Shown: positions 9,223-57,750, counted from the stretch's first letter. The stretch: DNA of 64,000 nt from Minisyncoccota bacterium (GCA_965216295.1 OZ244141.1:78163-142162); one strand, 5' to 3'. Made by a program: numbers and translations. The notes: generated by a model not told the origin, from the sequence alone.

Positions 9223-9411
9223 TTTGAATAGTTATTAGTATGTGTAATTATCAACAAAGAACAAAGAGAAAGGCACCCTGTGGGGTGTCTTGTTACATGG
9301 ACAATGATACTTTCCGAAAAGTATGCAGACATGTATAGGATTAATAATCTGTCACCATATATACCGCACTCAACTTATTTTTGCAAGTGTTGGTATGTGT
9401 TTACAAATGCA

Positions 9412-10185
9412 TCAATGTGTTGCCTGTATCACACCAACACTATCAAGAACATCAAGCACGGCTCCCTGAGCGTGCCACCCTACCAAAACAAGTGGCGCTA
9501 ACACCGATATGAGAAAAAGTGCCGAAAAGGTGGTAAGGAGGGTGCTATAGATACAAAAAATTGCCACTTTGCGTTTGTCATGGTGATACAGTGATGTAAA
9601 GAAACGGTATGAAAAGTACCCAAAAATAAAGAATAAAATGAGAAGAAGAATGATGGGGGTTGTTGTGGTACCACTAATGAGCCGCTCTATCGTCTGATTG
9701 AGAGAGGGTGATCCGAGATAGATAACCCAATACCATGACACGGGAAAGTTAAAGGCAATGAGTGCATAGAGAAAAGAAACCCACTTCTTTGTCTGATTGC
9801 CAGAAAAAAGATACGAGGCTACCAGGTACGCGAGCACCCCGAGAAAAATAAATACGAGAGTCGCAGAGGCAACAACAAGTTCAATCGCTGGTACAAGAGA
9901 TGATAGTGAAACCAGTGATGGTCCAACAACAAATGGTACAAGCCCTGATAGCCATAACAGCAAAAGTGGTGTGGTAAAGAGTGTGGCGTATAAGAGGCGA
10001 ACAAAAAAGACAATTTTCCTGTCCATACCCTTACCGATGTTTGGAAAAAGAAAAAAAATAACCCGATAGGTGACAACAACAGTCGGAACAATAATAGCGA
10101 AGACAAAGAGAGTGTTGGTGGGAATGGCACTGACGAGTGTTGGATCATACACTGGCTGGATTTGTGCATAGGCTGTCGTAATCAT
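9412..10185 (-). CDS. Polytopic integral membrane protein (hypothetical), last gene of the ABC-exporter cluster
   Basis: 6 to 8 predicted hydrophobic helices. No family recognised. Confidence 0.4.
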   Translation of the reverse strand: MITTAYAQIQPVYDPTLVSAIPTNTLFVFAIIVPTVVVTYRVIFFLFPNIGKGMDRKIVFFVRLLYATLFTTPLLLLWLSGLVPFVVGPSLVSLSSLVPAIELVVASATLVFIFLGVLAYLVASYLFSGNQTKKWVSFLYALIAFNFPVSWYWVIYLGSPSLNQTIERLISGTTTTPIILLLILFFIFGYFSYRFFTSLYHHDKRKVAIFCIYSTLLTTFSALFLISVLAPLVLVGWHAQGAVLDVLDSVGVIQATH

Positions 10186-32661: not shown

Positions 32662-33116
32662 GGTGTGGGGGTAAATGTGTGTGTTGCTCCGTTCACAGAT
32701 ATGGTAACACCATATGCATTTTTTGGTATGTATTTTGGAGCACGCTCAGGCCATTCAATAATAGTGAGATTCTTTGTTTTTGTCATAACAGCCTCCCAAC
32801 CAAGTGTCTCTATCTCCTTTTCATCCTCCAAACGATATAAATCAACGTGTGTCAAGTATTGAAAGGTCTCGTCGGTTGTTATATATTCTTTATGAAGTAC
32901 AAATGTTGCACTCGTAATGGTCTCAGAAACACCAAGAAGCCCCCCTATCTCTTTTACTAATGCTGTTTTACCAGACCCCAGTGGTCCAGATAGTAATAAC
33001 ACCACTTTTGTATCTTTATGAACACCATCTAAAACTTCTTTTTTAATATGTTCAAGGAGTGCTTTTGCAAACACCGCAACCTCTTGGATACTTGTTGTCT
33101 CTGTCTTTTGAAGCAT
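32658..33116 (-). CDS. tsaE: tRNA threonylcarbamoyladenosine biosynthesis protein TsaE
   Basis: P-loop LSGPLGSGKTALV and DLYRL motif. The track ORF extends upstream to 33206; the likely start is at MLQKTETT. Confidence 0.8.
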   Translation of the reverse strand: MLQKTETTSIQEVAVFAKALLEHIKKEVLDGVHKDTKVVLLLSGPLGSGKTALVKEIGGLLGVSETITSATFVLHKEYITTDETFQYLTHVDLYRLEDEKEIETLGWEAVMTKTKNLTIIEWPERAPKYIPKNAYGVTISVNGATHTFTPTP

Positions 33117-33158
33117 GTCTGTAGCATAGCATTGGTGGTAAGTGATACACTGTTGGTA

Positions 33159-34838
33159 ATGGGTGTATTTAAAAATGAGATCGTAGAAACAAAGCTGCGA
33201 GAACACTACAAAGAGGAGGAGGAGCGATTAATGCAGTACCTCTCTGAGAGATATAACCTACCCTATCTCATCTTGTCAGATGTTTCTTTAGAGCCAGATG
33301 CCCTCCAGATGATCAAAGAAGAGCGAGCAAAAGAGGGTGAATTTGTAGTTTTTAAAAGATTGAAAAAAAATCTTTTTGTGGCGACACGAAATCACAAAAA
33401 TCCCATATTACAAGAATCTCTTCAAGAATTTAAAAAGAGGGGGTTTTCTGTAAAACTCCATCTCATCTCTCGAACAACTCTCAATAGACTCTTATCCTAC
33501 TATCAGGACATTAAACCGACCATAGCGACCACCTCAGGAACTTTCACAATTACCGGAAAAGAGTTTTACGCAAAATCAAAAGAGATTCGATCAATCGAAC
33601 AAGCACGAGAATTTCTCAAATCACTTGCTGGTATGAGTAGTTCCCGTCGTATCTCAAAAAATGTTGAGTATATTCTTACATCAGCCATGAGCCTTGGTGC
33701 CTCTGATATACATATTGAACCAAACAGTGAGGGGGGTGCTGTGCGATATCGATTAGATGGTGTGTTGGTAACCATTGTTGAGTTTTCACCACAAGAAATG
33801 AAACAACTCATCACGCGAATAAAGCTGGTTGCTGGTATGAAAATTAATATTATCACTCAGGCACAAGATGGTAGTTTTGTTGTTCAACTTCCTGATCATG
33901 CAATTAGTGTTCGTGCGTCCACCGTACCACAAGAGGTTGGTGAGTCTTTTGTGCTTCGTCTACTAGACCCAAACACTGTTTTGCATGAAATTGAAAAGCT
34001 TGGTTTGCATAAAATTGTTTTAGAAACCTTTCAGGAAGAAATAAAAAAACCGCACGGTATGATTATCACAACAGGACCAACAGGATCTGGTAAAACAACA
34101 ACGCTCTATTCATTCCTTAACGCTGTTAAATCACCAGGAGTGAAAATAATTACTCTTGAGGATCCAGTAGAATACCGCCTTCCTGGTATCATTCAAACAC
34201 AAATAGAGAAGAAGTATACTTTTGCGTCTGGGTTGCGAGCTATTTTGCGACAAGATCCTGACATAATCCTTGTTGGTGAGATTCGTGATGAAGAAGTTGC
34301 TGGAGTTGCAATACAAGCATCACTCACAGGACACATGGTCTTTTCCACCCTACACACAAATGATGCAATTGGAACACTCCCCCGTCTTGTTGGGTTTGGT
34401 GTTGATCCTAAGTCACTTTCTCAAGCACTCAATCTTGTTATAGCCCAGCGCTTGGTGCGAAAATTGTGCCCACACTGTTCTGAAAAACAAGTATTAAACG
34501 ATGAACAAAAAAAGAAGGTGAATAATTTTATAGCAGCACTTCCTGATGGGTATAAAACAGAGAAATTATCCTTTGATACTATCCGAGAAGTTGGGCCGAG
34601 TAGTAAAACATGTGAACGTTGTGTTGGTGGTTATAAAGGTCGTGTTGGTGTATTTGAAACGTTCCGCGTTGGACCAGAAGAAGAGATGTCTGTTATACAA
34701 GGTGCAACCACAAAAGAATTGCAAGACGTTATTAAAAAACAAGGGTTGCCGTTTATGCATCAAGATGGTTTATATAAAGTACTCACTGGTGTCACTTCTT
34801 TTGCTGAATTAGGGCGTGTGTTAGGATTATATATATAA
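33159..34838 (+). CDS. Type II secretion / type IV pilus assembly ATPase (GspE/PilB family)
   Basis: Walker A TTGPTGSGKTTT, Asp box, His box, tetracysteine motif (CPHC...CERC). The track ORF starts at 33048; the likely start is MGVFKNE. Confidence 0.85.
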   Translation: MGVFKNEIVETKLREHYKEEEERLMQYLSERYNLPYLILSDVSLEPDALQMIKEERAKEGEFVVFKRLKKNLFVATRNHKNPILQESLQEFKKRGFSVKLHLISRTTLNRLLSYYQDIKPTIATTSGTFTITGKEFYAKSKEIRSIEQAREFLKSLAGMSSSRRISKNVEYILTSAMSLGASDIHIEPNSEGGAVRYRLDGVLVTIVEFSPQEMKQLITRIKLVAGMKINIITQAQDGSFVVQLPDHAISVRASTVPQEVGESFVLRLLDPNTVLHEIEKLGLHKIVLETFQEEIKKPHGMIITTGPTGSGKTTTLYSFLNAVKSPGVKIITLEDPVEYRLPGIIQTQIEKKYTFASGLRAILRQDPDIILVGEIRDEEVAGVAIQASLTGHMVFSTLHTNDAIGTLPRLVGFGVDPKSLSQALNLVIAQRLVRKLCPHCSEKQVLNDEQKKKVNNFIAALPDGYKTEKLSFDTIREVGPSSKTCERCVGGYKGRVGVFETFRVGPEEEMSVIQGATTKELQDVIKKQGLPFMHQDGLYKVLTGVTSFAELGRVLGLYI

Positions 34839-39444: not shown

Positions 39445-40560
39445 TTACTTATTAAGTAGTGGTGAGATAAGTGCTGTAAATAGTTTATGTGAAGCTCCTT
39501 GTATTAAAATAGGTTTTACACCACCACTAACAAAACAAAATCGTATTTTTTCATCATTAATGACTTGTATAGCGTCATTAATAAATCGATAGTTAAAATT
39601 TGGTAATTCCCCGCCCCTTTGTAAATCAGCGATTGGTATTCTATCCTCTGTGGATCCAATAGTATCATTATCAAAATATAGAACAATATAATTACCATCA
39701 ATCTTCATTTTTATAGTATTTAGTGTGTTAGAAAAATATTTTGCTTTTTTGAAAAAATTAAGTACATCATACTTTAAAACAGTGAAACTAATATCAAAAT
39801 TGGTTGGTATTATTTTTTTATAATCTGGGAAAGTGCCAGATGTTGATCGTGTGAAAAAAGTACCCTCTTTCATACCAACACACACACCCTCATCACCTAT
39901 GGTAAGAGCAACTGATGGATTGATTGATGATTCTAATATTTTTAAAATTTTATTAACATTTTTTGCTGGTATAAGTACATCAAAATCTTTAACCATATCA
40001 TCAACAAGAAATCGTATTTCAGCTAATCTAAATGTGTCTGTTGCAACAAAATATATATTTTTTTCTTTAGTTTTAATAAGTACATTATTAAGCTCTTGTT
40101 TAATAACACTTGTAGCTGCGGCGTGTTGGGTTGCTCTCAGTCCACAAATAAACACTTCACGATCTATTGAGAATTTGTTTTTTATATCCTTTGTGTTGAT
40201 ATTTGGAAATTCATCAACAACTCCAGAAATTGTTTTAATTTTTGAAACACTACTCTCTGTTTTAATTTGTAAAACAGAATTATTTTCAACCAAATCTAAT
40301 TCAATAACTGAGTCAATAATTGGTGAAACAACACCGTCAAATATTTTAATTGAAACAATAAACTCTCCCTCACTCTCAACCTCAACATCTGTTTCATACA
40401 CCATAGAAATATCAAATTGAGTAAGATATAAAGATAATTTTTTATCTTTCACAATAATTTTTACAGGATCCTCAACCACCTCACCTAGTTGTGGTGTCAC
40501 TATCCTTGTTAATGTCCTTACACTATTTTTTAAAAAGCTGGTTAATACTTTTACTTTCAT
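39445..40560 (-). CDS. dnaN: DNA polymerase III beta sliding clamp
   Basis: Length of about 370 aa, three-domain clamp-like pattern, and position immediately downstream of dnaA. Confidence 0.7.
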   Translation of the reverse strand: MKVKVLTSFLKNSVRTLTRIVTPQLGEVVEDPVKIIVKDKKLSLYLTQFDISMVYETDVEVESEGEFIVSIKIFDGVVSPIIDSVIELDLVENNSVLQIKTESSVSKIKTISGVVDEFPNINTKDIKNKFSIDREVFICGLRATQHAAATSVIKQELNNVLIKTKEKNIYFVATDTFRLAEIRFLVDDMVKDFDVLIPAKNVNKILKILESSINPSVALTIGDEGVCVGMKEGTFFTRSTSGTFPDYKKIIPTNFDISFTVLKYDVLNFFKKAKYFSNTLNTIKMKIDGNYIVLYFDNDTIGSTEDRIPIADLQRGGELPNFNYRFINDAIQVINDEKIRFCFVSGGVKPILIQGASHKLFTALISPLLNK

Positions 40561-40805: not shown

Positions 40806-42182
40806 TTATATTAAATTCAAACTTCTTTTAATATTATTAAAATCACTTATAATTTTTACATCATTTTCTAGCATATCAGATACTCTATCACAGGCATACA
40901 TAACTGTTGTATGGTCTCTGTTTCCTAAGTGCTTACCAATTGAAGAATATGGTGTGTTTAAGAACTCTCTTAGTATATACATTATTATCTGTCGTATCAA
41001 AACCATCTCCTTTTTTCTTGATTTTGTTGTTATTAATGAAGGATCAATGTCATAAAAAGAACAAACCTTTTGTATAACATCTTTATGAGTTATGTTTATT
41101 TTTGCCTTTAAATTACTCTTAATAAAGTTTTTAATATTTGACAACTTTATTTGTTTGTTGTGTATCTCATTATAGAGCATAATATTTTTTACAACACTAT
41201 CAAGCTCCCGGACATTCCCATTTATGTTCTTAACAACAAAATCAACAATTTCATCCTCAACAATAAGGTCTATGTTTTCAATCTTTTTCTTGAAAATGAT
41301 ACCTAATGACTCAGAATCCACAACCTGGATATCCACAATCATACCAGAGGCAAACCTTGATCGAATACGCTCTTCAATAGAGGGAATCTCACTCGGAGGT
41401 CTATCAGAGGAGAAAATAATCTGATTATTATTATTGTAAAAATGGTTAAATAAATGGAATAATTCTATGGTAGTACGCTCCTTTCCTGCGAAGAAATGAA
41501 CATCATCTATAATAAGGAGTTGATAACTTTGGTACCTCTTACGAAAATCACTAACTCTTTCATGACCAACACCAACCGCGTCTACATAATCCTGTGTAAA
41601 GTTTTCTGCGGTCGTGTAATACACTTTTAGGTTTGGTTGTAGTTGTAATACCCTATTCCCCAACGCTTGTGTGAGGTGAGTTTTACCAACACCAGTTGGC
41701 CCATAAATAAATAGTGGATTATATACAACACCCAGTCTTTTTATAACAGCTTGAGCCGCGCTGTGTGCAAAGTCAATATACGGAGCAATAACAAATGAAT
41801 CAAAATTAAACCGAGGGTTTAGTCCAGAATTTTTATCAACTTGTTCAAATTGAAACGGTATGGTTTTATTATCCTGCTTTTTTTTCGCAGACTGATTTGT
41901 ATTAATTCTTCTGTTTATAGTAAAACGAACAAGTTTTATGTTTGTGGTTTGTTTTTGTATCTCACTAATAATAATCCGCATATATTTCTGTTGAATCCAG
42001 TTTTTAACAAACTCATTAGGAACACCAATTGTGAGAGTTTTGTCTTTATCCACATGAAGAGCGTGTGTACTAACAAACCACGTCTTAAAATTTGTTTCAG
42101 GAATTGATTTTCTCAATGATTCTAAAACCCCTTCCCAAATTGTTTGAGCATCTAATGTTCTGACCGTTTCCATTGAACCCAT
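40806..42182 (-). CDS. dnaA: Chromosomal replication initiator protein DnaA
   Basis: AAA+ Walker A GPTGVGKTHL, Walker B LLIIDDVHF, and C-terminal DNA-binding domain. The track ORF runs to 42233; the likely start is MGSMETV. Confidence 0.9.
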   Translation of the reverse strand: MGSMETVRTLDAQTIWEGVLESLRKSIPETNFKTWFVSTHALHVDKDKTLTIGVPNEFVKNWIQQKYMRIIISEIQKQTTNIKLVRFTINRRINTNQSAKKKQDNKTIPFQFEQVDKNSGLNPRFNFDSFVIAPYIDFAHSAAQAVIKRLGVVYNPLFIYGPTGVGKTHLTQALGNRVLQLQPNLKVYYTTAENFTQDYVDAVGVGHERVSDFRKRYQSYQLLIIDDVHFFAGKERTTIELFHLFNHFYNNNNQIIFSSDRPPSEIPSIEERIRSRFASGMIVDIQVVDSESLGIIFKKKIENIDLIVEDEIVDFVVKNINGNVRELDSVVKNIMLYNEIHNKQIKLSNIKNFIKSNLKAKINITHKDVIQKVCSFYDIDPSLITTKSRKKEMVLIRQIIMYILREFLNTPYSSIGKHLGNRDHTTVMYACDRVSDMLENDVKIISDFNNIKRSLNLI

Positions 42183-42329
42183 TATGGGGTATGAAGTCAA
42201 AAAAGCAAAATAGATATATAGCAGTGCTCTCAATTAAGATGTGTATAACGTTGTGAATAACTAAATAAAAATAGTATTGTGTTGTTTTGATAGATAAGGT
42301 ATACTCAGCAAGTCACACTCTCAACTTTT
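42183..42329. promoter_or_regulatory. dnaA-rpmH intergenic region with two DnaA-box-like motifs (candidate oriC part / dnaA promoter)
   Basis: TGTGTATAA (42240-42248) and TGTGAATAA (42252-42260). Classic rpmH-dnaA origin context. Confidence 0.4.
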
Positions 42330-42449
42330 ATGCACAAAAGAAGTGTAAAAAAAACAAACAAAAAACACGGTTTTCTATCAAGGAGTAAAACAAGCTCAGG
42401 AAAGAAGGTTATTCAACGAAGAAGGCTTCGAGGAAGGAAAAGTATATAG
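42330..42449 (+). CDS. rpmH: 50S ribosomal protein L34 (not in the ORF track; found by manual translation)
   Basis: Translation gives MHKRSVKKTNKKHGFLSRSKTSSGKKVIQRRRLRGRKSI, matching the L34 pattern (K(R)T.Q....K...HGFR.R......G..VL..RR.KGRK.L). Its stop overlaps the rnpA ATG. Confidence 0.8.
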   Translation: MHKRSVKKTNKKHGFLSRSKTSSGKKVIQRRRLRGRKSI

Positions 42450-42766
42450 TGATGCAGAAGAAAATATCATCACAAGAGATTAAAAACTATCTTCGGGGGG
42501 GTGTTAGGGTTTCAAATAACAGTCTGGTGATTATTTATCATAAAAAACAAGAAAGAAAATCTGTTGCAGTTATTATATCAAAGAAAAAAATTAAAAATGC
42601 TGTAAAAAGAAATTATGTTCGTCGAGTAATACGATCTCTTGCGCAATCAGAAAAAGAATTAAAAGGAATTTTTATTTTTATCTATAAATCAAAAGAAACA
42701 AAAAATGAGCGTATACAAAAAGTAATACAAGACGCAATCAAAACACTAAAGGATAAGTTAGTATAA
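42449..42766 (+). CDS. rnpA: Ribonuclease P protein component
   Basis: Small basic protein with an RnpA-like N-terminus, immediately downstream of rpmH. Confidence 0.75.
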   Translation: MMQKKISSQEIKNYLRGGVRVSNNSLVIIYHKKQERKSVAVIISKKKIKNAVKRNYVRRVIRSLAQSEKELKGIFIFIYKSKETKNERIQKVIQDAIKTLKDKLV

Positions 42767-42835
42767 AAAGTGCTATTGTGGAAAACATACTAAACAAAAA
42801 CAAAAAAAAGAGTAATGGTATATACTGACTGAGTA

Positions 42836-44983: not shown

Positions 44984-45466
44984 CTATTGTATGATAAAAT
45001 TAAGGAATTTTAATGAAACCAAATCAGGGTTAACGGTATTTAATATTATATAGGATCCTATAAGGATAACCAAACTCAATAATCCATTTTTTAGCACTGT
45101 TAAAGCCTCCTCTCGCCCCTTCACATGACCACCCGCAGTTAGTGCTAATAGCCTTACCCCATAAAAGGCAATAACAACCGTAGTAAATATTGCGGCAAGA
45201 GAAAAGGCAATTTTAAAAAGTGCCGTCAATAATTTTCGAATTAACTTATTTATTTCTTCTTGATCCTTAATATTAACTCCAATCCCAGCTCCGGGTGCGG
45301 GAGGTTTAAATCCTGGTATGCCAACAGAAAAATAAATTGTTTGCATTTGGTTTTGAGAAACAGCGGTCATTTTTTGTATAGGGGTGGTGAAAAAAAACAG
45401 CGCTGTTGTAAAAAAAGCAACCACTATGGTAACGCAAATGTATTTATAGCTCGATAGTAAAATCAT
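44984..45466 (-). CDS. Small membrane protein, candidate VirB2/TrbC-like pilin
   Basis: Signal-like N-terminus plus two C-terminal hydrophobic helices. The size and topology fit T4SS pilins. There is no sequence-level family proof. Confidence 0.3.
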   Translation of the reverse strand: MILLSSYKYICVTIVVAFFTTALFFFTTPIQKMTAVSQNQMQTIYFSVGIPGFKPPAPGAGIGVNIKDQEEINKLIRKLLTALFKIAFSLAAIFTTVVIAFYGVRLLALTAGGHVKGREEALTVLKNGLLSLVILIGSYIILNTVNPDLVSLKFLNFIIQ

Positions 45467-46969: not shown

Positions 46970-48790
46970 TCAACTTACCGAATCATCACCACCCTCCTTT
47001 TTAGATTTTATTCGGAGCAGTTGAGATGGATCAGAGGTAATAATCTGATCTTCTGTGTAAGAAGCGATAATTTTAATAGCAACTCTTTTAAGGCCGGCGA
47101 CAAACAAACCCTCCCCAACCGCTGATTCTAAGAGTAAAAACTTTTCATTATCTGTAAGGTTAAAAATTTCTTGTAACCTCTCTATTGATGTTGCAGATTG
47201 TCGTAGCAAAAGAACCAAAGAGGCGTTGTTTAAAATTGGTTTTCCGTAAGGAGAGTTTAAGAAATCACTAACATCTTGTGTGATTGTGGCAACTCCAAGA
47301 TAGTATTTTCTACCACGCTTTACCAATCCAAACAGAAAAATAGCACTCGCCTCATCACGCATCATTACCCACGCTTCATCGACAACCAGGAGTCGTTTGC
47401 GTAATACCTTACGCACATTGTTCCATATATAGTGTGTAATAATATACATTGCTGCAGGTTTCAACTCATCTTCCATATCTCTAATGGAAAAAACAACCAA
47501 ATCTTTATTCATATTGACATTAGTTGGTTGATTGATAAAACCAGACCATGACCCTCCTGTATATTTTCCAAGACGACCAACCAACCCCTCACTCCCATCC
47601 AAACCAGCAAGTACTAAGGCAAAATCAGAAAGCAGTGGCGCTTCCGCGTTTTCAAAGTTAGCATTTGGAGTTATGTCTTTCAAGGCGTATGTCTCTGTAA
47701 TAGCTTTATCAAGAAGAGATTCTTCTGCTGCGGTCAGATTGCCTAAAAGAACACGGAACAATCCAACAAGATCAATAATATTACTTCGCAAGACATCGGC
47801 TGGATTTTCATCCTCACGAATAGCAGGAAGATCAAATGGATTGATGTGATGTTCTGAATTAAGTGAAACATTGAAATGCCGACCATCAACCGCCTTAGAT
47901 AGAGGTTCAAACTCCATCTCAGGATCAATAACAATAACATTAATACCTGCCATCAATGATCGCAACACTTCCAATTTCATAGCGTATGATTTACCAGCAC
48001 CTGATGTTGCAAAGGTAACCGAGTTGTAGTTTGGTAATGAAAAACGGTCAAATAGTATGAGTGATGCGTTATGCTGATTAACACCATAGAGAATCCCTCG
48101 ATCTGCAGAAAGACCGAATGAGACAAATGGAAATATGCTTGAGAGTGGTTCTGAGTTGAGTTTGGTGTGTATAGAAAGCACATCATTTGCAAACGGGCTA
48201 GTGCTCTTAAATCCCTGCTCTTGTTGAAACAAACTTGGCTTTACGAATATAAGACGACCATCAAGGAGTGATCGCAAATCCTTTTCTGTATCTGCTAATG
48301 ATTCCAAAGAATCACCATAGATAGTAATGTATATACCAACATCAAACAACAATTCTGTTGCCTGTTGAATTCGATCACGCAAATGCTCCAAATCTCTCCT
48401 CGCAATATCAAGTTTTGGATCACGAACCATACCCTTACGTTCTCTTTCCAGAATCTGACTCTCCACCTGCGCAACCTTCTTTCTAAAATCACGCAAAACA
48501 TTTTTTGTCTCAATGGGGTGTATGTGTATAGCGATGTCAAATTCTCTGCTAATGTTGATGATTGGTGTAAACCAACCCTCATTTAAAAAGCGAGGATACG
48601 AGACTATTGCAAGTGTCCGTGCGTACTTACCACCAAGCTCAATGTGTTTGGGAGCAACTTTGATTGCTGCGGGGGCAATAACATCTCGCAACCCAATACT
48701 GCTACGCTCAAACATTTCTTGTGGCATAAAAGAGGTAACCCCTTTCCCCTCCACAGCGCTTTTCTTTTTAAAAATATCTAAAAGTCCCAT
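46970..48790 (-). CDS. VirB4/TraC/TrsE-family conjugation/type IV secretion ATPase
   Basis: Walker A FATSGAGKSYAM, Walker B LLVVDEAWVMM, and the VirB4 N-terminal domain pattern (IELGGKYARTLAIVSYP). Confidence 0.8.
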   Translation of the reverse strand: MGLLDIFKKKSAVEGKGVTSFMPQEMFERSSIGLRDVIAPAAIKVAPKHIELGGKYARTLAIVSYPRFLNEGWFTPIINISREFDIAIHIHPIETKNVLRDFRKKVAQVESQILERERKGMVRDPKLDIARRDLEHLRDRIQQATELLFDVGIYITIYGDSLESLADTEKDLRSLLDGRLIFVKPSLFQQEQGFKSTSPFANDVLSIHTKLNSEPLSSIFPFVSFGLSADRGILYGVNQHNASLILFDRFSLPNYNSVTFATSGAGKSYAMKLEVLRSLMAGINVIVIDPEMEFEPLSKAVDGRHFNVSLNSEHHINPFDLPAIREDENPADVLRSNIIDLVGLFRVLLGNLTAAEESLLDKAITETYALKDITPNANFENAEAPLLSDFALVLAGLDGSEGLVGRLGKYTGGSWSGFINQPTNVNMNKDLVVFSIRDMEDELKPAAMYIITHYIWNNVRKVLRKRLLVVDEAWVMMRDEASAIFLFGLVKRGRKYYLGVATITQDVSDFLNSPYGKPILNNASLVLLLRQSATSIERLQEIFNLTDNEKFLLLESAVGEGLFVAGLKRVAIKIIASYTEDQIITSDPSQLLRIKSKKEGGDDSVS

Positions 48791-48791
48791 A

Positions 48792-49397
48792 CTATAGTTT
48801 TGGTACCGGCGCAGTGTCGCCCGGATTAAATGTTTGATACAACAATTCGGTAACAGCTTCGGTGTCTAGGCGAACAGCGCGAAGGCCTAAAGAGCGTATG
48901 TTATTTTGCACAAAAGAAACGCGTTGTTGTAGTTGTGTTTGAGCCTCTTCAAAGAAATTTTGTTGCTCGTTTGTTTTAGATTTTTTAAATGATAACGTTA
49001 GTGATTTTATTTGCACTGGAGAATAACCAATAATAAGAAAAAACTGCTTCGTCATAATTTCATTTGATTCAGTAAATTCAGTAATAAATTTGATATATTC
49101 TTTGGTTTGCAATCTCAACAACTCTACCTCCTGTTTGTTGTAAAGATTTTCTAAATATTCTAGGTGCTTTTGTATATTGAGGCGACGAGATTGTATAAGA
49201 ATCTGTATATTCACCTCTAATGAATTAAGCATACTCTGGAACTGATTGAGTATCGCTTCACGCTCCAAGTCAGACTTTAGATCAAAGTTTAATGAAGAAA
49301 CCAGCACGATTGCACAGAATATACCGTCCTCTCGAATGATAGTGCCATCTCGTATTTCTTTCAAAGGAACAAATGACTGTGTTGTTTTCTGTTTCAT
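48792..49397 (-). CDS. Hypothetical cytoplasmic protein, possibly a VirB4 N-terminal-domain-like accessory
   Basis: VPLKEIRDGTIIREDGIFCAIVLVSSLNFDLKSDLERE resembles the start of the VirB4/TraC N-domain. Immediately upstream of the ATPase. Confidence 0.3.
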   Translation of the reverse strand: MKQKTTQSFVPLKEIRDGTIIREDGIFCAIVLVSSLNFDLKSDLEREAILNQFQSMLNSLEVNIQILIQSRRLNIQKHLEYLENLYNKQEVELLRLQTKEYIKFITEFTESNEIMTKQFFLIIGYSPVQIKSLTLSFKKSKTNEQQNFFEEAQTQLQQRVSFVQNNIRSLGLRAVRLDTEAVTELLYQTFNPGDTAPVPKL

Positions 49398-49400
49398 ACG

Positions 49401-49823
49401 CTATGATGTTTGCCGACTGTCTTGAGAAAATTGTATCTCAGTAAGTAATTCTTTAATACGATCTGATTCATTATGATCTTTTTGAGTTTCTGAAACTTCT
49501 TCATTTTTTTGAGCCACTCTTTTTCGTGTAACCGCAACAGATTCTTGTTGTTTGTTCCAGACATATAATTTATCATTCAAGAGATATGTCAGCATTGCTC
49601 GAAGCAGGTCTATAAATGATTGGCTGTTGTGTTTGTAAAACGCTAACAATCCTCCAAGAACTCCAACAGGAGCACCCACAAGCAACGCGGTCCCAAACCC
49701 AACAAAGAAGAATAAAAAAATAAAGAGTCCAAGAGCTCCTCCTATGTACACAGCCTGCACAAAACTGAGCCCAAACAAAATGGTATCTGGAATATCAAGG
49801 TTTTGTGGTACTTGAAACCGCAT
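49401..49823 (-). CDS. Small 2-TM membrane protein (VirB3/PrgI-like candidate)
   Basis: Two adjacent TM helices followed by a charged tail. Positioned before the VirB4-like gene. Confidence 0.35.
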   Translation of the reverse strand: MRFQVPQNLDIPDTILFGLSFVQAVYIGGALGLFIFLFFFVGFGTALLVGAPVGVLGGLLAFYKHNSQSFIDLLRAMLTYLLNDKLYVWNKQQESVAVTRKRVAQKNEEVSETQKDHNESDRIKELLTEIQFSQDSRQTS

Positions 49824-49864: not shown

Positions 49865-50176
49865 TTATTGAGGTCGAGTGAGTATGATGCTTTTAATCTT
49901 TTTAAAGATCCTTTCATCAACAGCTTGGACAATCATCTTTTTCTCTTCATTAGAGACTCCCATCCGTTTATCAATGCTTTGAGTAAAAGAATCAGACCGC
50001 TTAATACCTGTAATGACACCAATCACATCTTCCTCAAGCGTACTGATTTGTGGGATAGATAGCTGAAATTCTTCAGCCAATAGTGCCAACTCTTTTTCTA
50101 GTATGGTCTGTATCGCATCACGTTTTTTATCACCATACTTACTCAATATCGCCAAAAAATTCCTTTTATAGTTCAT
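49865..50176 (-). CDS. Small hypothetical cytoplasmic protein
   Basis: ORF only; helical and charged. Confidence 0.3.
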   Translation of the reverse strand: MNYKRNFLAILSKYGDKKRDAIQTILEKELALLAEEFQLSIPQISTLEEDVIGVITGIKRSDSFTQSIDKRMGVSNEEKKMIVQAVDERIFKKIKSIILTRPQ

Positions 50177-50179
50177 ACA

Positions 50180-52096
50180 TTATTTATTATCACCTTTCTT
50201 TTTGGTACCATAGTATTTGTGAGTAAATTCCCTTGATGCGTTCGTGATTTTCCTTGCTCTATCATTAAGGATTTTTTTAGCAAATGCAATTCTTGCATCA
50301 CTATTTGGAGGAGCTTCTTTTGCTCGACCACTTCCTGCAATAATCTGATCAGCCTTCTTTCCATCCACCTCTCCTATTCTATCTGGATGATGTTGATTCA
50401 TGAGAAGTTTGTACTGATCTCGCATTTTTTCAGGAGAAGTTTCGTTTGACGTACCAAGTATTGCGTGATAGTCATCACCACTCACTTCATCAAGCTGTTT
50501 TCCTGTTGGAGGGGTATATCCTTTTTCTGTGCCATCTGAAGGGTTGTATGGGAGTGCCAGTTTTGATTCTTGTAGGTGTTCTAAACGACGGTTTTTGGGT
50601 ATCGGTGATCCACCACCACCACCACCATCATCTCCTGCTACTGATGGACGAGGGTTAGTTGAAGTTTTTTTATCTTCTTGTGTTTTAGCATCTTTCTTGC
50701 CACCACGATGACGATTAAAGAAGCCAGAAGCAGCACTTGATTTGAATAATATATGTCGATCTTTTAGCGATCTCCCCCCTTTCTTCTTATCACCCTGATC
50801 AATTGATCGTACATCACCAACAAACTCCTTTGTTATTCTCTTTGTTGCTTTCCCTACAGATGTTTTTCCAAGCCAAGCAGCTCTCCTTTTCGTCCACCCA
50901 TGAAATTGACCTTTTCCAACACTATCCGAAAAATCCCTCCCCTGCCATCGCCAATAATTTCGCAAATTCTGCAAACGACCTGTCAAGTTCACCCCGCCCT
51001 TAAGGGCTTTTTGTATCTTGTTAAAGAGACTGATAACGTGGAGTATGAGGAATATCGTAAGGAAGGCGAGAAAGATACTTCCTATAAATTCCTCATAAGG
51101 ACTATTTCCCAAATTTTCATTAAGTATCTTATCCATCAATTCTGTTATTTTAAATACAAACCATAATAGAAAGAAAATAATAACCGGCATTAACGCGGTG
51201 CTCTGTAATTTACCAACCCACCAGATTTTAAACTTTCCAAAAACATTCTTACCATCACCTCCGACAAATAAGGCAATTACGGCAATTGGTGATGTGATGA
51301 GTACAAGAATGGCAACAAAGAATCGTTCAAAAAAGAGAATGATAAGGTAGAAAAATGATGCTGCGAGAGCAAACTTGGTAATCATTGAGAAAAGATGAAA
51401 AAGAATACTCGCTTTAGCGATTGCGGTAGAGCCAGCGGGTGCACTGGCGCCAGAAGATGCACCCGAAAGGGAAATTTTTTGGTGTAAATTGGGATTTATA
51501 AGGTTATCAGCATACAAAGAATACAAACCAGATTGCTGTTGGAACAGAAGTGCAAACAGATTTGATACATCATAAATAAACAATACAAAAAAACCACTAA
51601 AGTTTACCAACAACGCAGCAATAAGTAGTCGTACCAACGTTGCCTTGCTATACCATCCTGGCTTTTCTCGAAGATGACTAAAAACAATCCCAACAGCGAT
51701 AGTTATGAATAGTGCAACAATAATAAGATTGGCGACATCTCTAAAAAACACCCAAACATCCTGAATAATACCTGATTCAGTGGGTGCAACAATGGTGCTA
51801 AATTCCAAGACAGTGAGTGTGGTGGCATGACGAAGCGCATCAAGAGACAAGTCTAATACATTACTTCCGATGGTGTTGTTAAGAAAATCAAACATTAGCT
51901 CAACAACCTTATAAATGGTACCAATAATTGCTGATGCCACCGCCCCCGCCCCCCCCGCTACATCTATTGGTGTTTCTGGTTTCGGAAATCCTGGTCCTTG
52001 TGCGAAGACCCATTGCCAGTCAACAAGTAGTACAACAAGCAATGCAATACAACACCACCCAGCTGTTTTAAATATTGTAATATTCACTTTTTTCAT
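50180..52096 (-). CDS. VirB6/TrbL-like polytopic membrane protein with a C-terminal J-like domain (HPD motif)
   Basis: Signal plus about 6 TM and a cytoplasmic tail ending in DDYHAILGTSNETSPEKMRDQYKLLMNQHHPDR (J-domain-like helix II/III with HPD). Confidence 0.5.
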   Translation of the reverse strand: MKKVNITIFKTAGWCCIALLVVLLVDWQWVFAQGPGFPKPETPIDVAGGAGAVASAIIGTIYKVVELMFDFLNNTIGSNVLDLSLDALRHATTLTVLEFSTIVAPTESGIIQDVWVFFRDVANLIIVALFITIAVGIVFSHLREKPGWYSKATLVRLLIAALLVNFSGFFVLFIYDVSNLFALLFQQQSGLYSLYADNLINPNLHQKISLSGASSGASAPAGSTAIAKASILFHLFSMITKFALAASFFYLIILFFERFFVAILVLITSPIAVIALFVGGDGKNVFGKFKIWWVGKLQSTALMPVIIFFLLWFVFKITELMDKILNENLGNSPYEEFIGSIFLAFLTIFLILHVISLFNKIQKALKGGVNLTGRLQNLRNYWRWQGRDFSDSVGKGQFHGWTKRRAAWLGKTSVGKATKRITKEFVGDVRSIDQGDKKKGGRSLKDRHILFKSSAASGFFNRHRGGKKDAKTQEDKKTSTNPRPSVAGDDGGGGGGSPIPKNRRLEHLQESKLALPYNPSDGTEKGYTPPTGKQLDEVSGDDYHAILGTSNETSPEKMRDQYKLLMNQHHPDRIGEVDGKKADQIIAGSGRAKEAPPNSDARIAFAKKILNDRARKITNASREFTHKYYGTKKKGDNK

Positions 52097-52102
52097 ACAT
52101 TA

Positions 52103-55100
52103 TTAGAAAAAGGGGCGCGGCACATTAACATCAGGTATATTAACAAAATCATCCAATCCAGACGGCGGTGTAGTTATTTTCCGAATACTTTCATCCCTAA
52201 TCCCATAATCAGTTTTCAACGACCTATCTTTTGTTCTGGACGATCTATCACCACCAGGAACTGATTTCCAGAAATTGGAATAATCCCCCAAAATCTTTTG
52301 CTGAACTCGTCCTCGTAACGCAGCGTTATACTGTCTGCCAATTGTATTGCTACTGAATTTTGTTGCCCTAAAGGTCTGAATAGCATCATCATCTTTACTA
52401 AAAATTCTAGCAAAATTAACTGTTTTTGCTTGATCATATCCTGTTCCGTATGTTCCGTAAGATTGTGACTGTAGATTAAATGTAGGAGTGTTTTGTAATG
52501 TTATGTTGGGAATATCAATTATTCCATTTTCATAAAATAGGTAAATGACTCTGGACAACGCCCGAGCTATATTCTTGGTTTTTGTTTCACGAACTTCCTT
52601 TTTCAATGTATTAAGTGTACCTGATTCACAAAAACCTTGGCCCTCAACAGTAACATTAATTTTATCTGTACATTTTTTATAAGCAGGCGCTGCCCCGTTT
52701 TTAATTTTTTTCACAAGAGCTTTCTCAACATTTTGTGGCGTGACTTCATCACTTCCCACCAACTTACTCCTAATTTTCTTTACCCCCTCATTTCTCTCAT
52801 TTTTATACCCATCACTCAAAAAAACATCATCCTCTCCTCGAACACGGAGATATACTCCTAACGTAGATTTATAATCACCAACCAGCTTTTCAGCTACTAT
52901 CTCTTTCTGTTCTAGGTAGGATAAGTCATTGTGAAAATTTCTAAAAGAAAGATTGTTAACATCTTCGTAATAGAGGAATGTATCAGAAACATTCTTCTTC
53001 TCATCCACTATAGTGGTTTCAGTCACATCAATCTTTTTTGTTTTACGACTAATGATGACAATTTTATTCCGCCTCTCTAAAGTTTCTTTAATTTGCACTT
53101 TGGCTTTGAATCCAGAAGGTATCTCGCCGAGCACTTGCTTGCTTTCCAAACTCTTTTTCACATGATCTTTATATATCTCATAAGCTTTATAATCCTGGTC
53201 AAGTTTGGGGTTTGTAACAAGATAGTTGCCCTCATTACCAATGACACCACTCAATAAGTATCGAGCATCACCCGCTGCTTCGACATATTCTTCTGCTTCT
53301 GCGTAACCACTTTCGTCTATAAACGCTACAAAGACCGAATCACCTCCATTAGCAAGTGCATTCGCATTACGATCAAGTTGACCGGTGTCCACCGCATCTA
53401 TACCTCCTTCTAAGAGGTTTTGAAAAACATTACTGAATGTTTGCTCTATTACACTAGATAGAAGGCTACCAATTTCACTAAACTCATCAGCTTCAGACAC
53501 TTGTTCGAGTGGCAGTTGTGAAGCGAATGAAAAGCTTTCTGAGATTAAACTGTAATCCTGATATATAGTTGGTTGTGTTAAGCAGTTAATAAAAGCATCA
53601 ATATCAATCAATCCATCAGAGTTATAACTTCCATCACTACCACACCCATCAGCCTTGTCAGCATCATGACTAGACATAAGAGCTCCAGTTTCAGATGTTA
53701 CCTGCTCTCTCTTTGAAACCGTATCACCAGATATATTATTACGAATCTCTTGTGCATCAAAGAATGTTCCAATGTATAGTTCACTAAACGACTGTGCTAC
53801 ATTAAATGGTCTAAAAGTCACATCTTCTTCTATAATTTTCACATTAACATCTATATCCACATCCACGCCAAAATCAACAGTGCTTTTATTAATATTGTCA
53901 AATATATCACTCCCCTTACACGCCCTGGTTTTAATAATACCAATCCCCAATTCATCCTTTATAAGGCGTGTAAAATCAAGATTAAGGCTGTCATTACAAA
54001 AGAACCCCAAACCCTCTCCTGTCAAAAAACTTCCAACAGCCTCGTCAGCTAAATTTTTCCAGTACTCAGAAGGATTGTCTTGGAAAAAATTTGCTTCATT
54101 GCTCCAATTTACATATTTAGAAAGAAGACCTTGGGTTAGCGCGCTTGAAGCGATTCGTGCAATTCCATCGAGAAGACATTCCTTACCCACATTTGCCAGA
54201 TCGTTAGTTGGTACGCTGATTATAGAAGCGAGACCTCCTAGACCAGCAGCCAAGCAAGCAAGCAAGGTCGCCGCTGCCGCCACAACGCCCGATAAAAGAC
54301 TGCTGCCCGATCCACCACCACCACCACCTCCTTCACCTTCAAGAAGTGTTTCACCAAAATCTTCAAAATCTTCATCTGAGTTTGTTTGCACTTTTAAAAA
54401 TTCAGGTGCCACCACCTCTTCTTCATTCAACCCTTGATAAACAGCAGATATACCCCAATCTCCATCTGTTAGTTTTAAACGAACGCTACCATCACCCTTT
54501 CTTGTTTTTTCTACAACTTCCCCCGTATCTTGATTGAGCGCCACGATAGTTATTTCAATATTAGGAAATCCAGACACTTCAATTCTGTTGTCTATTTCTC
54601 CAGAAGGTGATTCAAAACCCAAAGTTTTGTTGGGCGTTTTTATCTCCAACAGGTCAGGAACATTTGTGGTTATTTCCTTACCTAAACTATCTTTATATGT
54701 AAAACTCAATGACCACTTACCATTTCCTAGAAGTAAGTCTATATAATCATTATCTTTTTGCCTTTCCTTTTTCAAAACCCGATTCCCTCTAGATGCTTTA
54801 ATAGTTATTGGGGTTTTTGGGTCTGCACTATTTATGTTATTTATTGTTATTTTATTTATTAAATTTTCACTAGGTGAAGTAAAGGAGAGAAATATGGGTT
54901 TGAGTGAAGAACCACCACCTTCTTCAGAACCAGATGGATCCCCACCACCATCTTTTTCAGAACCAGATGGATCCTCACCACCACCTTCTTCAGAACCAGA
55001 CGGATCCCCACCACCATCTTTTTCAGAACCAGACGGATCCCCACCACCATCTTTTTCAGAACCAGACGGATCCCCACCACCATCTTTTTCAGAACCAGAT

Positions 55101-55606
55101 GGATCCTCATTACCACCTCTGGGATTATTAGTTCTTCTAGTGATAAATTTTATAAAAGCAGCATTCACAGAACTTCCGGTGTATAAGGAATTATTCCTTC
55201 CAGCACCGTTAAGATTGGAACCATTACCACCATCAAAACCAGACGAACCATTACCACCATCAAAACCAGACGAACCATTACCACCACCACCATTACCACC
55301 ATCAAAACCAGACGAACCATTATCACCATCAAAACCAGACGAACCACCACCACCTCCAGGAGCAGTTGTGCTACTATCAAGGTCACCACCAGGAGGTTTT
55401 ATATTAAATATCCTAGCCAAATCTTTTGATGTTTTTGGTTCTAAAGAAGTTCCTCTTAAGGACGGGTCTACCAAAACCTCGCCATCTCCTAGTCGATCAA
55501 GCGTTCCTCGTTTTGCTTCGTCACCCTCTAAGATAAATAAATAGACACCGCTCGCTACCAAAACAACCACAGAAACAACACCAATAAGGATAAATCTAAA
55601 AGTCAT
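52103..55606 (-). CDS. Giant (1167 aa) Gly/Asp/Pro-rich repeat protein with an N-terminal TM and an internal hydrophobic segment
   Basis: Repeats (GNGSSGFDGG) x4 and (DPSGSEKDGGG) x6; poly-Gly stretches; mid-protein TM (VVAAAATLLACLAAGLGGLASII). Confidence 0.5.
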   Translation of the reverse strand: MTFRFILIGVVSVVVLVASGVYLFILEGDEAKRGTLDRLGDGEVLVDPSLRGTSLEPKTSKDLARIFNIKPPGGDLDSSTTAPGGGGGSSGFDGDNGSSGFDGGNGGGGNGSSGFDGGNGSSGFDGGNGSNLNGAGRNNSLYTGSSVNAAFIKFITRRTNNPRGGNEDPSGSEKDGGGDPSGSEKDGGGDPSGSEKDGGGDPSGSEEGGGEDPSGSEKDGGGDPSGSEEGGGSSLKPIFLSFTSPSENLINKITINNINSADPKTPITIKASRGNRVLKKERQKDNDYIDLLLGNGKWSLSFTYKDSLGKEITTNVPDLLEIKTPNKTLGFESPSGEIDNRIEVSGFPNIEITIVALNQDTGEVVEKTRKGDGSVRLKLTDGDWGISAVYQGLNEEEVVAPEFLKVQTNSDEDFEDFGETLLEGEGGGGGGGSGSSLLSGVVAAAATLLACLAAGLGGLASIISVPTNDLANVGKECLLDGIARIASSALTQGLLSKYVNWSNEANFFQDNPSEYWKNLADEAVGSFLTGEGLGFFCNDSLNLDFTRLIKDELGIGIIKTRACKGSDIFDNINKSTVDFGVDVDIDVNVKIIEEDVTFRPFNVAQSFSELYIGTFFDAQEIRNNISGDTVSKREQVTSETGALMSSHDADKADGCGSDGSYNSDGLIDIDAFINCLTQPTIYQDYSLISESFSFASQLPLEQVSEADEFSEIGSLLSSVIEQTFSNVFQNLLEGGIDAVDTGQLDRNANALANGGDSVFVAFIDESGYAEAEEYVEAAGDARYLLSGVIGNEGNYLVTNPKLDQDYKAYEIYKDHVKKSLESKQVLGEIPSGFKAKVQIKETLERRNKIVIISRKTKKIDVTETTIVDEKKNVSDTFLYYEDVNNLSFRNFHNDLSYLEQKEIVAEKLVGDYKSTLGVYLRVRGEDDVFLSDGYKNERNEGVKKIRSKLVGSDEVTPQNVEKALVKKIKNGAAPAYKKCTDKINVTVEGQGFCESGTLNTLKKEVRETKTKNIARALSRVIYLFYENGIIDIPNITLQNTPTFNLQSQSYGTYGTGYDQAKTVNFARIFSKDDDAIQTFRATKFSSNTIGRQYNAALRGRVQQKILGDYSNFWKSVPGGDRSSRTKDRSLKTDYGIRDESIRKITTPPSGLDDFVNIPDVNVPRPFF
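54910..55125. repeat. Tandem 33-bp repeats (about 6 copies) encoding DPSGSEKDGGG units
   Basis: ttcagaaccagatggatccccaccaccatcttt repeated with minor variants. Confidence 0.8.
55219..55355. repeat. Tandem 27-bp repeats (about 4-5 copies) encoding the GNGSSGFDG units
   Basis: accaccatcaaaaccagacgaaccatt repeated. Confidence 0.75.
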
Positions 55607-56994: not shown

Positions 56995-57750
56995 TTAGAG
57001 TAATGCTGCGCATTGTTTCCAAGAATCAAAAGAAACATCTTCCGCTCGTGTTGTTTCTGTAACACCACAATTCATTAAACGGGTTTGTATGTCACTGTTG
57101 TGTGCAAACTTTTTTAACACCGCTTTTCGTTTATGTCTGAAAGCTGTGTGGATTAGTGAAAAAAAGTTTTGCTGTAATTGCTCTTCAACAGGAGAAATAT
57201 TTTCTATACTCAATATTGCGGAAGACACTTGAGGTTTTGGATGAAATGCTTGAGGCGGTACTGTTGTGATAATTTTTGGTGTACCAAAAAGACGAACAGA
57301 AAGTGAGAGGAGTGAGTGTTTGGTACGATGGGTAATTCTTTGAGCAACTTCCTTTTGCAACAAAAGAGCCATGCGAGTTGGTGGTACAGACGACGTTAGT
57401 AATAATCGCAACAGTGAGCTGGTGAGATAGTATGGTATGTTTGCCACAACCACAAATGGGGTTTTGGATATATGACTTTTCCATGATTCGTTTCGCGCAT
57501 CATCTTGTATGAGAACCAACTGCTCTTTCTCCAATGCCTCAGCAAATCGTTTCTGTAGACACTCTACTAAAACAGGATCTTTTTCTACGGCGTAGAGTTT
57601 TTTTGTATGTAAAAGGAGGAGTTCTGTTAAGACACCCTTACCAGGCCCGATTTCTAAAACCACTTCATTGTGCTGTATATGTGCCGCCTTTATTAACATC
57701 CCAGCAAATCGTTTGCTTTTTAAAAAATGTTGTCCTAATCGTGCTCGCAT
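56995..57750 (-). CDS. rsmA: 16S rRNA (adenine1518/1519-N6)-dimethyltransferase
   Basis: KsgA motifs GQHFL and SAM-binding VLEIGPGKGVLT; NIPY motif (VANIPYYLTS). Confidence 0.85.
   Translation of the reverse strand: MRARLGQHFLKSKRFAGMLIKAAHIQHNEVVLEIGPGKGVLTELLLLHTKKLYAVEKDPVLVECLQKRFAEALEKEQLVLIQDDARNESWKSHISKTPFVVVANIPYYLTSSLLRLLLTSSVPPTRMALLLQKEVAQRITHRTKHSLLSLSVRLFGTPKIITTVPPQAFHPKPQVSSAILSIENISPVEEQLQQNFFSLIHTAFRHKRKAVLKKFAHNSDIQTRLMNCGVTETTRAEDVSFDSWKQCAALL

Follow-up and report, generated by a model that had tools for sequence, protein, structure and literature searches.

This study concerns a 64,000-nucleotide stretch of DNA from a Minisyncoccota bacterium (GCA_965216295.1 OZ244141.1:78163-142162; hereafter the window), in which a VirB6-like polytopic protein of a type IV secretion system (T4SS) was found to end in a J-like tail. 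Coordinates refer to the whole window and residue numbers to the 638-aa VirB6-like protein, which is encoded by an uninterrupted open reading frame (ORF; 50180..52096, minus strand, stop codon included). The protein consists of a signal-like N-terminus, a hydrophobic core, a basic stretch with a Gly/Lys-rich linker, and a tail of ~110 residues. In the interpretation that we favour, and to which we give about an even chance, the tail is a divergent J-domain of class C (type III), tethered to the membrane, through which DnaK would be brought to the T4SS on its cytoplasmic side.

The C-terminal module (residues 529-636; 50189..50512, minus strand) comprised a PTG motif, helix I, helix II, an HPD loop, a short helix and a long helix. 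The HPD tripeptide (H570, P571, D572; codons CAT CCA GAT at 50381..50389, minus strand) directly followed helix II. Translation of positions 50249-50476 (minus strand), where the first-pass annotation had reported a J-like domain with an HPD motif, yielded exactly the reported peptide, DDYHAILGTSNETSPEKMRDQYKLLMNQHHPDRIGEVDGKKADQIIAGSGRAKEAPPNSDARIAFAKKILNDRARK (residues 541-616), and searches with Pfam, NCBIfam, phmmer and hhalign all returned J-domains. The sole Pfam match of the 638-aa protein was to PF00226 (full length, E 2.4e-4, 21.6 bits), to which the tail alone aligned with an E-value of 7.2e-6 (26.5 bits). NCBIfam matches of the tail were weak, and all of them were to DnaJ, DjlA or the short J-domain protein (JDP) ActJ, the model of which aligned to the tail across all 93 positions. 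Comparison with PDB sequences by phmmer retrieved J-domains exclusively, with E. coli DnaJ as top match (E 0.005). When a two-sequence profile of the tail and its ortholog was compared by hhalign with seven canonical J-domains, a probability of 93.3 % and an E-value of 2.6e-7 were obtained over 31 columns. Judged from these comparisons, the J-domain resemblance of the tail exceeds chance.

In an alignment with E. coli DnaJ, the tail retained equivalents of R22, Y25, K26, H33, P34, D35 and R36, while those of K23 and R27 were lost. Mutagenesis of DnaJ has identified Y25, K26 and the HPD as essential positions. Neither Pfam nor hhalign detected sequence similarity of the C-terminal half of the tail to canonical helix III/IV. 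We therefore read the tail as a J-fold module that sequence comparison no longer recognises in its second half, owing to divergence; a chance match is unlikely because all four methods gave J-domains.

An AlphaFold2 model of the tail, built on a four-row alignment of homologous tails, predicted a J fold that is compact and helical, with helices II and III paired in an antiparallel hairpin, in agreement with the fold anticipated in the first-pass annotation. The best model had a predicted local distance difference test score (pLDDT) of 88.2 and a predicted template-modelling score (pTM) of 0.79. Its helices spanned residues 543-547 (helix I), 555-569 (helix II), 579-587 and 599-636, with a turn at the HPD loop. 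Helix II ended at residue 569, and the HPD was located in the loop immediately after it. The last helix, with a length of 38 residues, was atypical for J-domains. In a Foldseek comparison of the model with the PDB, J-domains accounted for ~40 of the 47 top matches.

Assignment of the carrier protein to the VirB6 type, as proposed when the sequence was first annotated, was supported by its location in a T4SS gene cluster and by profile comparison. An exhaustive phmmer search against 1.84 billion representative proteins yielded 1977 relatives of the 638-aa protein, all but two of which aligned solely to ~residues 75-480. The conserved membrane core (residues 88-358; 51023..51835, minus strand) was the sole part common to the wider family. 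Hydrophobic segments were found at residues 6-32, 121-139, 157-184, 231-256, 260-278, 300-318 and 337-355, and W115, R119, D120, N123, N165, F166, S167, N179, R258 and P304 of the core were near-invariant. A profile from the best 150 of the 1977 homologs matched TrwI/VirB6 of plasmid R388 with an E-value of 3.2e-5 (26 bits). The 638-aa protein itself gave no match to PF04610; its relative P0005 matched this family with an E-value of 8.7e-4. By these profile comparisons, the protein is probably a VirB6 homolog at the family level. Relatives detected in a scan of GTDB representatives were 26-43 % identical and occurred in metagenome-assembled genomes of Saccharibacteria, Paceibacterota and Vogelbacteria.

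Like VirB6/TrbL proteins, the 638-aa protein combines a polytopic core with a variable C-terminal extension and is encoded alongside VirB4, VirB3/PrgI and a pilin. Long C-terminal extensions also occur in TcpH of pCW3 and in Rickettsiales VirB6 paralogs; the present protein differs in that no VirB6 extension with a J-domain was found described in the searched literature. Its core and tail are separated by a basic juxtamembrane stretch and a low-complexity Gly/Lys-rich linker (residues 359-528; 50513..51022, minus strand).

The distribution of J tails was studied in 154 family members, which were screened with a local hidden Markov model derived from seven canonical J-domains, after which candidates were confirmed with Pfam. 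This screen identified one further HPD carrier, P0090, a 797-aa protein with a long Gly/Arg/Asn-rich linker. Its C-terminal J-domain (...AQQHHPDQGG...) matched PF00226 with 43 bits (E 4.8e-11), which is 15 bits over the gathering cut-off of 27.8 bits, and its membrane core was 29 % identical to that of the window protein. Because the P0090 locus (L013) showed the same gene order and a yidC-rnpA-rpmH-dnaA neighbourhood, P0090 is a positional ortholog. Both HPD carriers have an unusual H-x-I-L-G in helix I, a QHHPD sequence and a PTG motif ~10 residues upstream, shared features that hint at a common origin; the similarity of the two J-domains to each other was no greater than that to E. coli DnaJ. 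P0156, P0157 and P0085, further members close to P0090, did not carry a J tail.

Only one close ortholog, P0002 (43 % identical), was found among the 1.84 billion proteins searched. An intact 622-aa member of its 90 % cluster, P0160, has a complete tail. Identity between the window protein and the ortholog amounted to 58 % in the membrane core, 21 % in the linker, 50 % in helix I-II and 57 % in the post-HPD segment, and to 2/9 residues in the HPD loop. The values for helix I-II and the post-HPD segment, as compared with that for the linker, support the view that the J module is under purifying selection. In locus L001, on the contig that carries P0002, the ORF ended after ...THSLKFTGKIV and the next frame resumed the homologous tail. 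The corresponding stop/frameshift lies beside an A-run within the tail (L001:11685-11700), on a contig labelled 7x. Truncation of the ortholog as a sign of decay was considered and rejected: with P0160 intact and the tail continuing in the next frame, the stop is attributed either to variation at the strain level or to a homopolymer error of long-read sequencing.

In the 60 residues past the last hydrophobic helix, 150 homologs showed K+R fractions of 0.12-0.22 and D+E fractions of 0.01-0.08. This K/R-rich, D/E-poor stretch, present in all 150 homologs, is a strong positive-inside signal, by which a cytoplasmic tail is likely. Experiments on the topology of VirB6 from A. tumefaciens and of TcpH from C. 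perfringens are reported to place the C-terminus in the cytoplasm. Derivation of the topology from hydropathy alone was abandoned, since it gave contradictory answers.

In the favoured interpretation, the J-domain of ~110 residues would be suspended from the membrane core by the basic, low-complexity linker of ~170 residues. It would recruit DnaK-ATP locally on the cytoplasmic side of the T4SS and stimulate the ATPase of DnaK. DnaK would then clamp polypeptides presented there, which could be T4SS subunits (assembly/turnover, quality control) or a substrate on its way into or out of the channel. Such recruitment is the likeliest mechanism because the HPD loop and the helix-II Y and K needed by E. 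coli DnaJ are kept. Recruitment of DnaK by the tail is plausible, and chaperone-driven secretion is possible. The tail would thereby follow the logic of DjlA, a JDP anchored in the membrane, and of Pam18/Tim14 and Sec63, which are tethered to translocons.

DjlA of E. coli and other Proteobacteria is likewise an inner-membrane protein that terminates in a J-domain, with extra sequence between the HPD and the last long helix, and its helix II/HPD region (YRKLMSEHHPDK) is very similar to that of the window tail (YKLLMNQHHPDR). In contrast to the polytopic VirB6-like anchor described here, the anchor of DjlA is a single transmembrane helix at the N-terminus; DjlA also contains a TerB-like domain and stands outside any secretion machine. 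Among the NCBIfam matches to DjlA, PRK09430 aligned with the J part of the window protein (E 7e-4), and NF006948 yielded 16-19 bits over model positions 201-233 only; a score of 19 bits falls short of the cut-off of 162 and rules out membership of the DjlA family. The membrane parts of Pam18/Tim14-Pam16/Tim16 (mitochondrial TIM23 translocon) and of Sec63 (translocon of the endoplasmic reticulum) have no sequence or architectural homology to the window protein, which is a bacterial T4SS protein, and the likeness to these systems is one of mechanism by analogy rather than of family membership.

Several observations weigh against a DnaK-recruiting J-domain in this protein. The search with PF00226 that the first-pass annotation had proposed gave a match of the tail at the E-value given above, but neither the tail nor the full protein (26.5 and 21.6 bits, respectively) reached the gathering score, and the alignment covered only profile positions 1-36/63, corresponding to helix I, helix II and the HPD. 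Helix II of the tail contained fewer basic residues than that of DnaJ. The five AlphaFold2 models, based on an alignment of 4 rows only, spanned pLDDT values of 49-88, single-sequence prediction of the tail was poor (pLDDT 47-65 for the J part), and Foldseek E-values of the tail model were non-significant (0.2 or worse). Conservation of the HPD in orthologs, the lack of which the first-pass annotation had named as a refutation, did not hold. P0160 has HSLK where the window protein has HHPD, a replacement of HPD by SLK in an otherwise well-kept domain. P0155 (locus L014), the closest relative of P0090 (44 % identical), has a J-like end (...PYKFLGISPGASDGEIQRRYERTREWYERV...; PF00226 16 bits) with WYE (WYER) in place of the HPD. 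Among the four known tail carriers, the HPD is thus kept in the window protein and P0090 and lost in P0160 and P0155. The look for the same fusion in orthologous clusters, as the first-pass annotation had proposed, led to the bona fide J-domain of P0090, a recurrence that speaks for the favoured interpretation, but an HPD J-domain was present in only 2 of about 155 family members and in none of 25 further Patescibacteria loci from genome and metagenome scans. No dnaK was found in the 64-kb window. The cytoplasmic location of the tail claimed at the outset is backed by the positive-inside signal, but a naive count of seven hydrophobic segments puts the tail outside, and the cryo-electron microscopy structure of the R388 system, with 2/5 VirB6 hydrophobic helices in the membrane (PMC9259494), does not confirm it either.

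Loss of the HPD is the core of a second explanation, which we consider distinctly less probable than DnaK recruitment, though a tenable alternative to it. According to this explanation, the tail is a structural, J-derived (pseudo-J) module that works without stimulation of Hsp70, as Pam16/Tim16 does, and would mediate protein-protein contacts or oligomerisation at the T4SS base. It might, for example, bind VirB4/TrsD or the tails of adjacent VirB6 subunits, and the HPD of the window protein would be a surviving relic. The sister lineage represented by P0160, which keeps the domain at 50-57 % identity save for the HPD loop (2/9, HHPD to HSLK), fits this explanation, as do the second such pair (P0090 with HPD, P0155 without), the absence of similarity to helix III/IV in the C-terminal half and the atypical 38-residue helix. 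However, the HPD and the helix-II Y/K/R are identical in two carriers whose cores are only 29 % identical, which would be difficult to account for if the motif were not under selection in these lineages, and the J-domain of P0090 clears the Pfam cut-off by 15 bits.

The J tail is an accessory, lineage-restricted and evolutionarily labile addition and not part of the core of the T4SS. The fusion is sporadic, with ~2 HPD-bearing and 2 HPD-less cases among about 155 homologs and 25 further loci, and is therefore no general feature of the channel. In P0015, a VirB6-like homolog of 548 aa, a C-terminal KH domain (PF00013, 37 bits) was found where the J-domain would be. The tails of the VirB6-like family are a site of domain shuffling. 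Many Patescibacteria VirB6-like proteins (loci L002-L012 and L015-L026) ended in a conserved helical segment, ...G(P/A)GAGF or ...GGAF, which matched none of the families looked at.

An extension of the DnaK-recruiting interpretation, which we regard as improbable, is that the J-domain makes the DnaK of the cell itself work as a ratchet where the T4SS opens to the cytoplasm. This ratchet would draw polypeptides, or DNA capped by protein, out of the host and into the epibiont. By analogy, it would be a bacterial equivalent of Sec63-BiP or of the PAM motor of mitochondria, and the HPD-less relatives might then, with the same low probability, be regulatory, Pam16-like partners. Such a ratchet would fit the proposal that Patescibacteria T4SS connect to host cells and import macromolecules (PMC12102498).

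Improbable, too, is a location of the tail outside the cell, or its delivery into the host bacterium, where the J-domain would act on host DnaK or on nothing. The family-wide positive-inside signal after the last hydrophobic helix and the cytoplasmic C-termini of A. tumefaciens VirB6 and C. perfringens TcpH argue against such a location, and a moderately hydrophobic stretch at ~residues 51-80, if membrane-spanning, could make the helix count even again. It would, on the other hand, agree with the naive segment count, with the position of helices alpha5-alpha7 of R388 VirB6 outside the membrane, in the stalk (PMC9259494), and with the proposed link of Patescibacteria T4SS to host cells (PMC12102498). 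J-like repeats in locus L014, which also count against the DnaK-recruiting interpretation, point in the same direction. In this locus, a 401-aa protein (L014:6766-7971, plus strand) has a membrane anchor at its N-terminus and, in tandem, three identical repeats of 50 aa, each an HPD-less J-like half domain (DYYTLLGISPNATQEEIEEAWRQYRARFAGNSEALQIGRIAYDSI; summed scores of 60 bits for PF00226 and 48 bits for PF10041, DUF2277). These repeats are probably outside the cell because they lie behind an N-in signal anchor. The 401-aa protein, which lies upstream of the neighbour of the VirB6-like gene, ends in ...KECGLDTFAAITF and is overlapped by an ORF at 7952-9991 (679 aa); the two ORFs are probably one gene split by a frameshift and the counterpart of a 1167-aa protein encoded in the window.

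Similarly improbable is that a helical, lysine-rich segment unrelated to J-domains merely happens to hold an HPD, as the sub-threshold Pfam match over ~35 residues and the Foldseek E-values would allow, since four independent methods converge on J-domains and the positional ortholog P0090 has a bona fide J-domain at the same place.

The 1167-aa protein in question (52103..55606, minus strand) is a membrane-anchored repeat protein without Pfam or NCBIfam match, and its gene adjoins the VirB6-like gene on the upstream side, as part of the same string of genes. It contains the tandem peptides DPSGSEKDGGG (~6 times) and GSSGFDGGNG (~5 times), and tandem DNA repeats (54911-55358) occupy the position of the J-like repeats of its L014 homolog. 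Further upstream are a 322-aa ORF without assigned function and ksgA (56995-57750). Downstream, the VirB6-like gene is followed by a 103-aa ORF (49865..50176, minus strand) without Pfam or NCBIfam match, which has a counterpart in L001 (11883-12191, 102 aa) and is absent from L013 and L014. Next come a PrgI/VirB3-like small membrane protein (49401..49823, minus strand; PF12666 PrgI, E 2e-7, 31.9 bits, above cut-off), a TrsD-like protein of 201 aa (48792..49397, minus strand) and a VirB4-family T4SS ATPase of 606 aa (46970..48790, minus strand; NF045971, VirB4-like CD1110 family, E 3e-103, 346 bits, above cut-off; PF19044, E 2e-22). Two ORFs without assigned family separate the latter from a VirB2-like T4SS pilin (44984..45466, minus strand; PF18895 T4SS_pilin, E 2.4e-5, 24.7 bits, just under the 26.6-bit cut-off), after which one further such ORF, yidC, dnaA (40806-42233) and dnaN (39445-40560) follow. 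The order of the VirB6-like, PrgI, TrsD-like, VirB4 and pilin genes was the same in L001, L013 and L014.

The TrsD-like ORF is the equivalent of the VirB4 N-terminal domain (NCBIfam matches to VirB4 N-terminal parts; TrsD NF041427, E 1.4e-4), and its homolog in L013 and L014 carries PF26593, TraC-like. VirB4 is thus split over two ORFs, one for the N-terminal part (201 aa) and one for the ATPase (606 aa). L013 and L014 share this split, which therefore represents a conserved arrangement rather than a frameshift.

The cluster is a chromosomal, origin-proximal, monoderm-type T4SS of an ultra-small, Patescibacteria/CPR-like (CPR, candidate phyla radiation) bacterium. Chromosomal T4SS of Patescibacteria (MPF-FATA-like; MPF, mating-pair formation) have been described near dnaA/ksgA/rnpA (PMC12102498), and the window shares with them VirB4, TrsD, PrgI/VirB3, VirB6 and a VirB2-like pilin as well as proximity to dnaA, dnaN and ksgA (PMC12102498); the relatives in L013 and L014 also have rnpA and rpmH in this neighbourhood. 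The described systems have no coupling protein or relaxase and were essential for epibiotic growth in the sole strain tested (PMC12102498). Among the ORFs scanned in the window, which were a part of the total, none matched a relaxase or a type IV coupling protein, and no second J-like ORF was found in the 64 kb.

The remainder of the window is ordinary chromosome, with genes for ribonucleotide reductase, PolA, a tRNA synthetase, PilB and ThyX. The PilB/T2SSE-type ATPase (33048-34838, plus strand; PF00437, E 4e-110) points to a type IV pilus system that would be encoded alongside the T4SS within these 64 kb. An intergenic region upstream of dnaA (42234-42835) contains four DnaA-box-like 9-mers with one mismatch each, and the lowest G+C content of the window (0.29) was found at 40-42 kb. 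This intergenic region is a probable oriC; the closest T4SS-string gene is ~1-2 kb away, and the distance to the VirB6-like gene is ~8 kb.

That the fusion of a J-domain to VirB6 was unfamiliar, as stated in the first-pass annotation, remained true after a full-text literature search, which retrieved no paper that connects VirB6, or any channel subunit of a T4SS, with a J-domain. In the survey of Patescibacteria T4SS, neither DnaJ nor J-domains nor chaperones are mentioned (PMC12102498). The window protein combines two known kinds, a class-C JDP and a VirB6 protein with C-terminal extension, in a fusion that is itself unreported in the searched literature.

This unexpected architecture provides a testable handle on the system, against which stand the rarity of the fusion, the loss of the motif in sister lineages and a functional claim that rests on prediction. 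Because it is confined to few lineages, the fusion cannot explain how the T4SS works in general. If the module has only a structural role, it would represent a bacterial J-domain decaying to a J-like module, in parallel to Tim14 and Tim16. If the tail is indeed a functional J-domain on a channel subunit, it would point to Hsp70 as a partner of an essential, mechanistically opaque T4SS.

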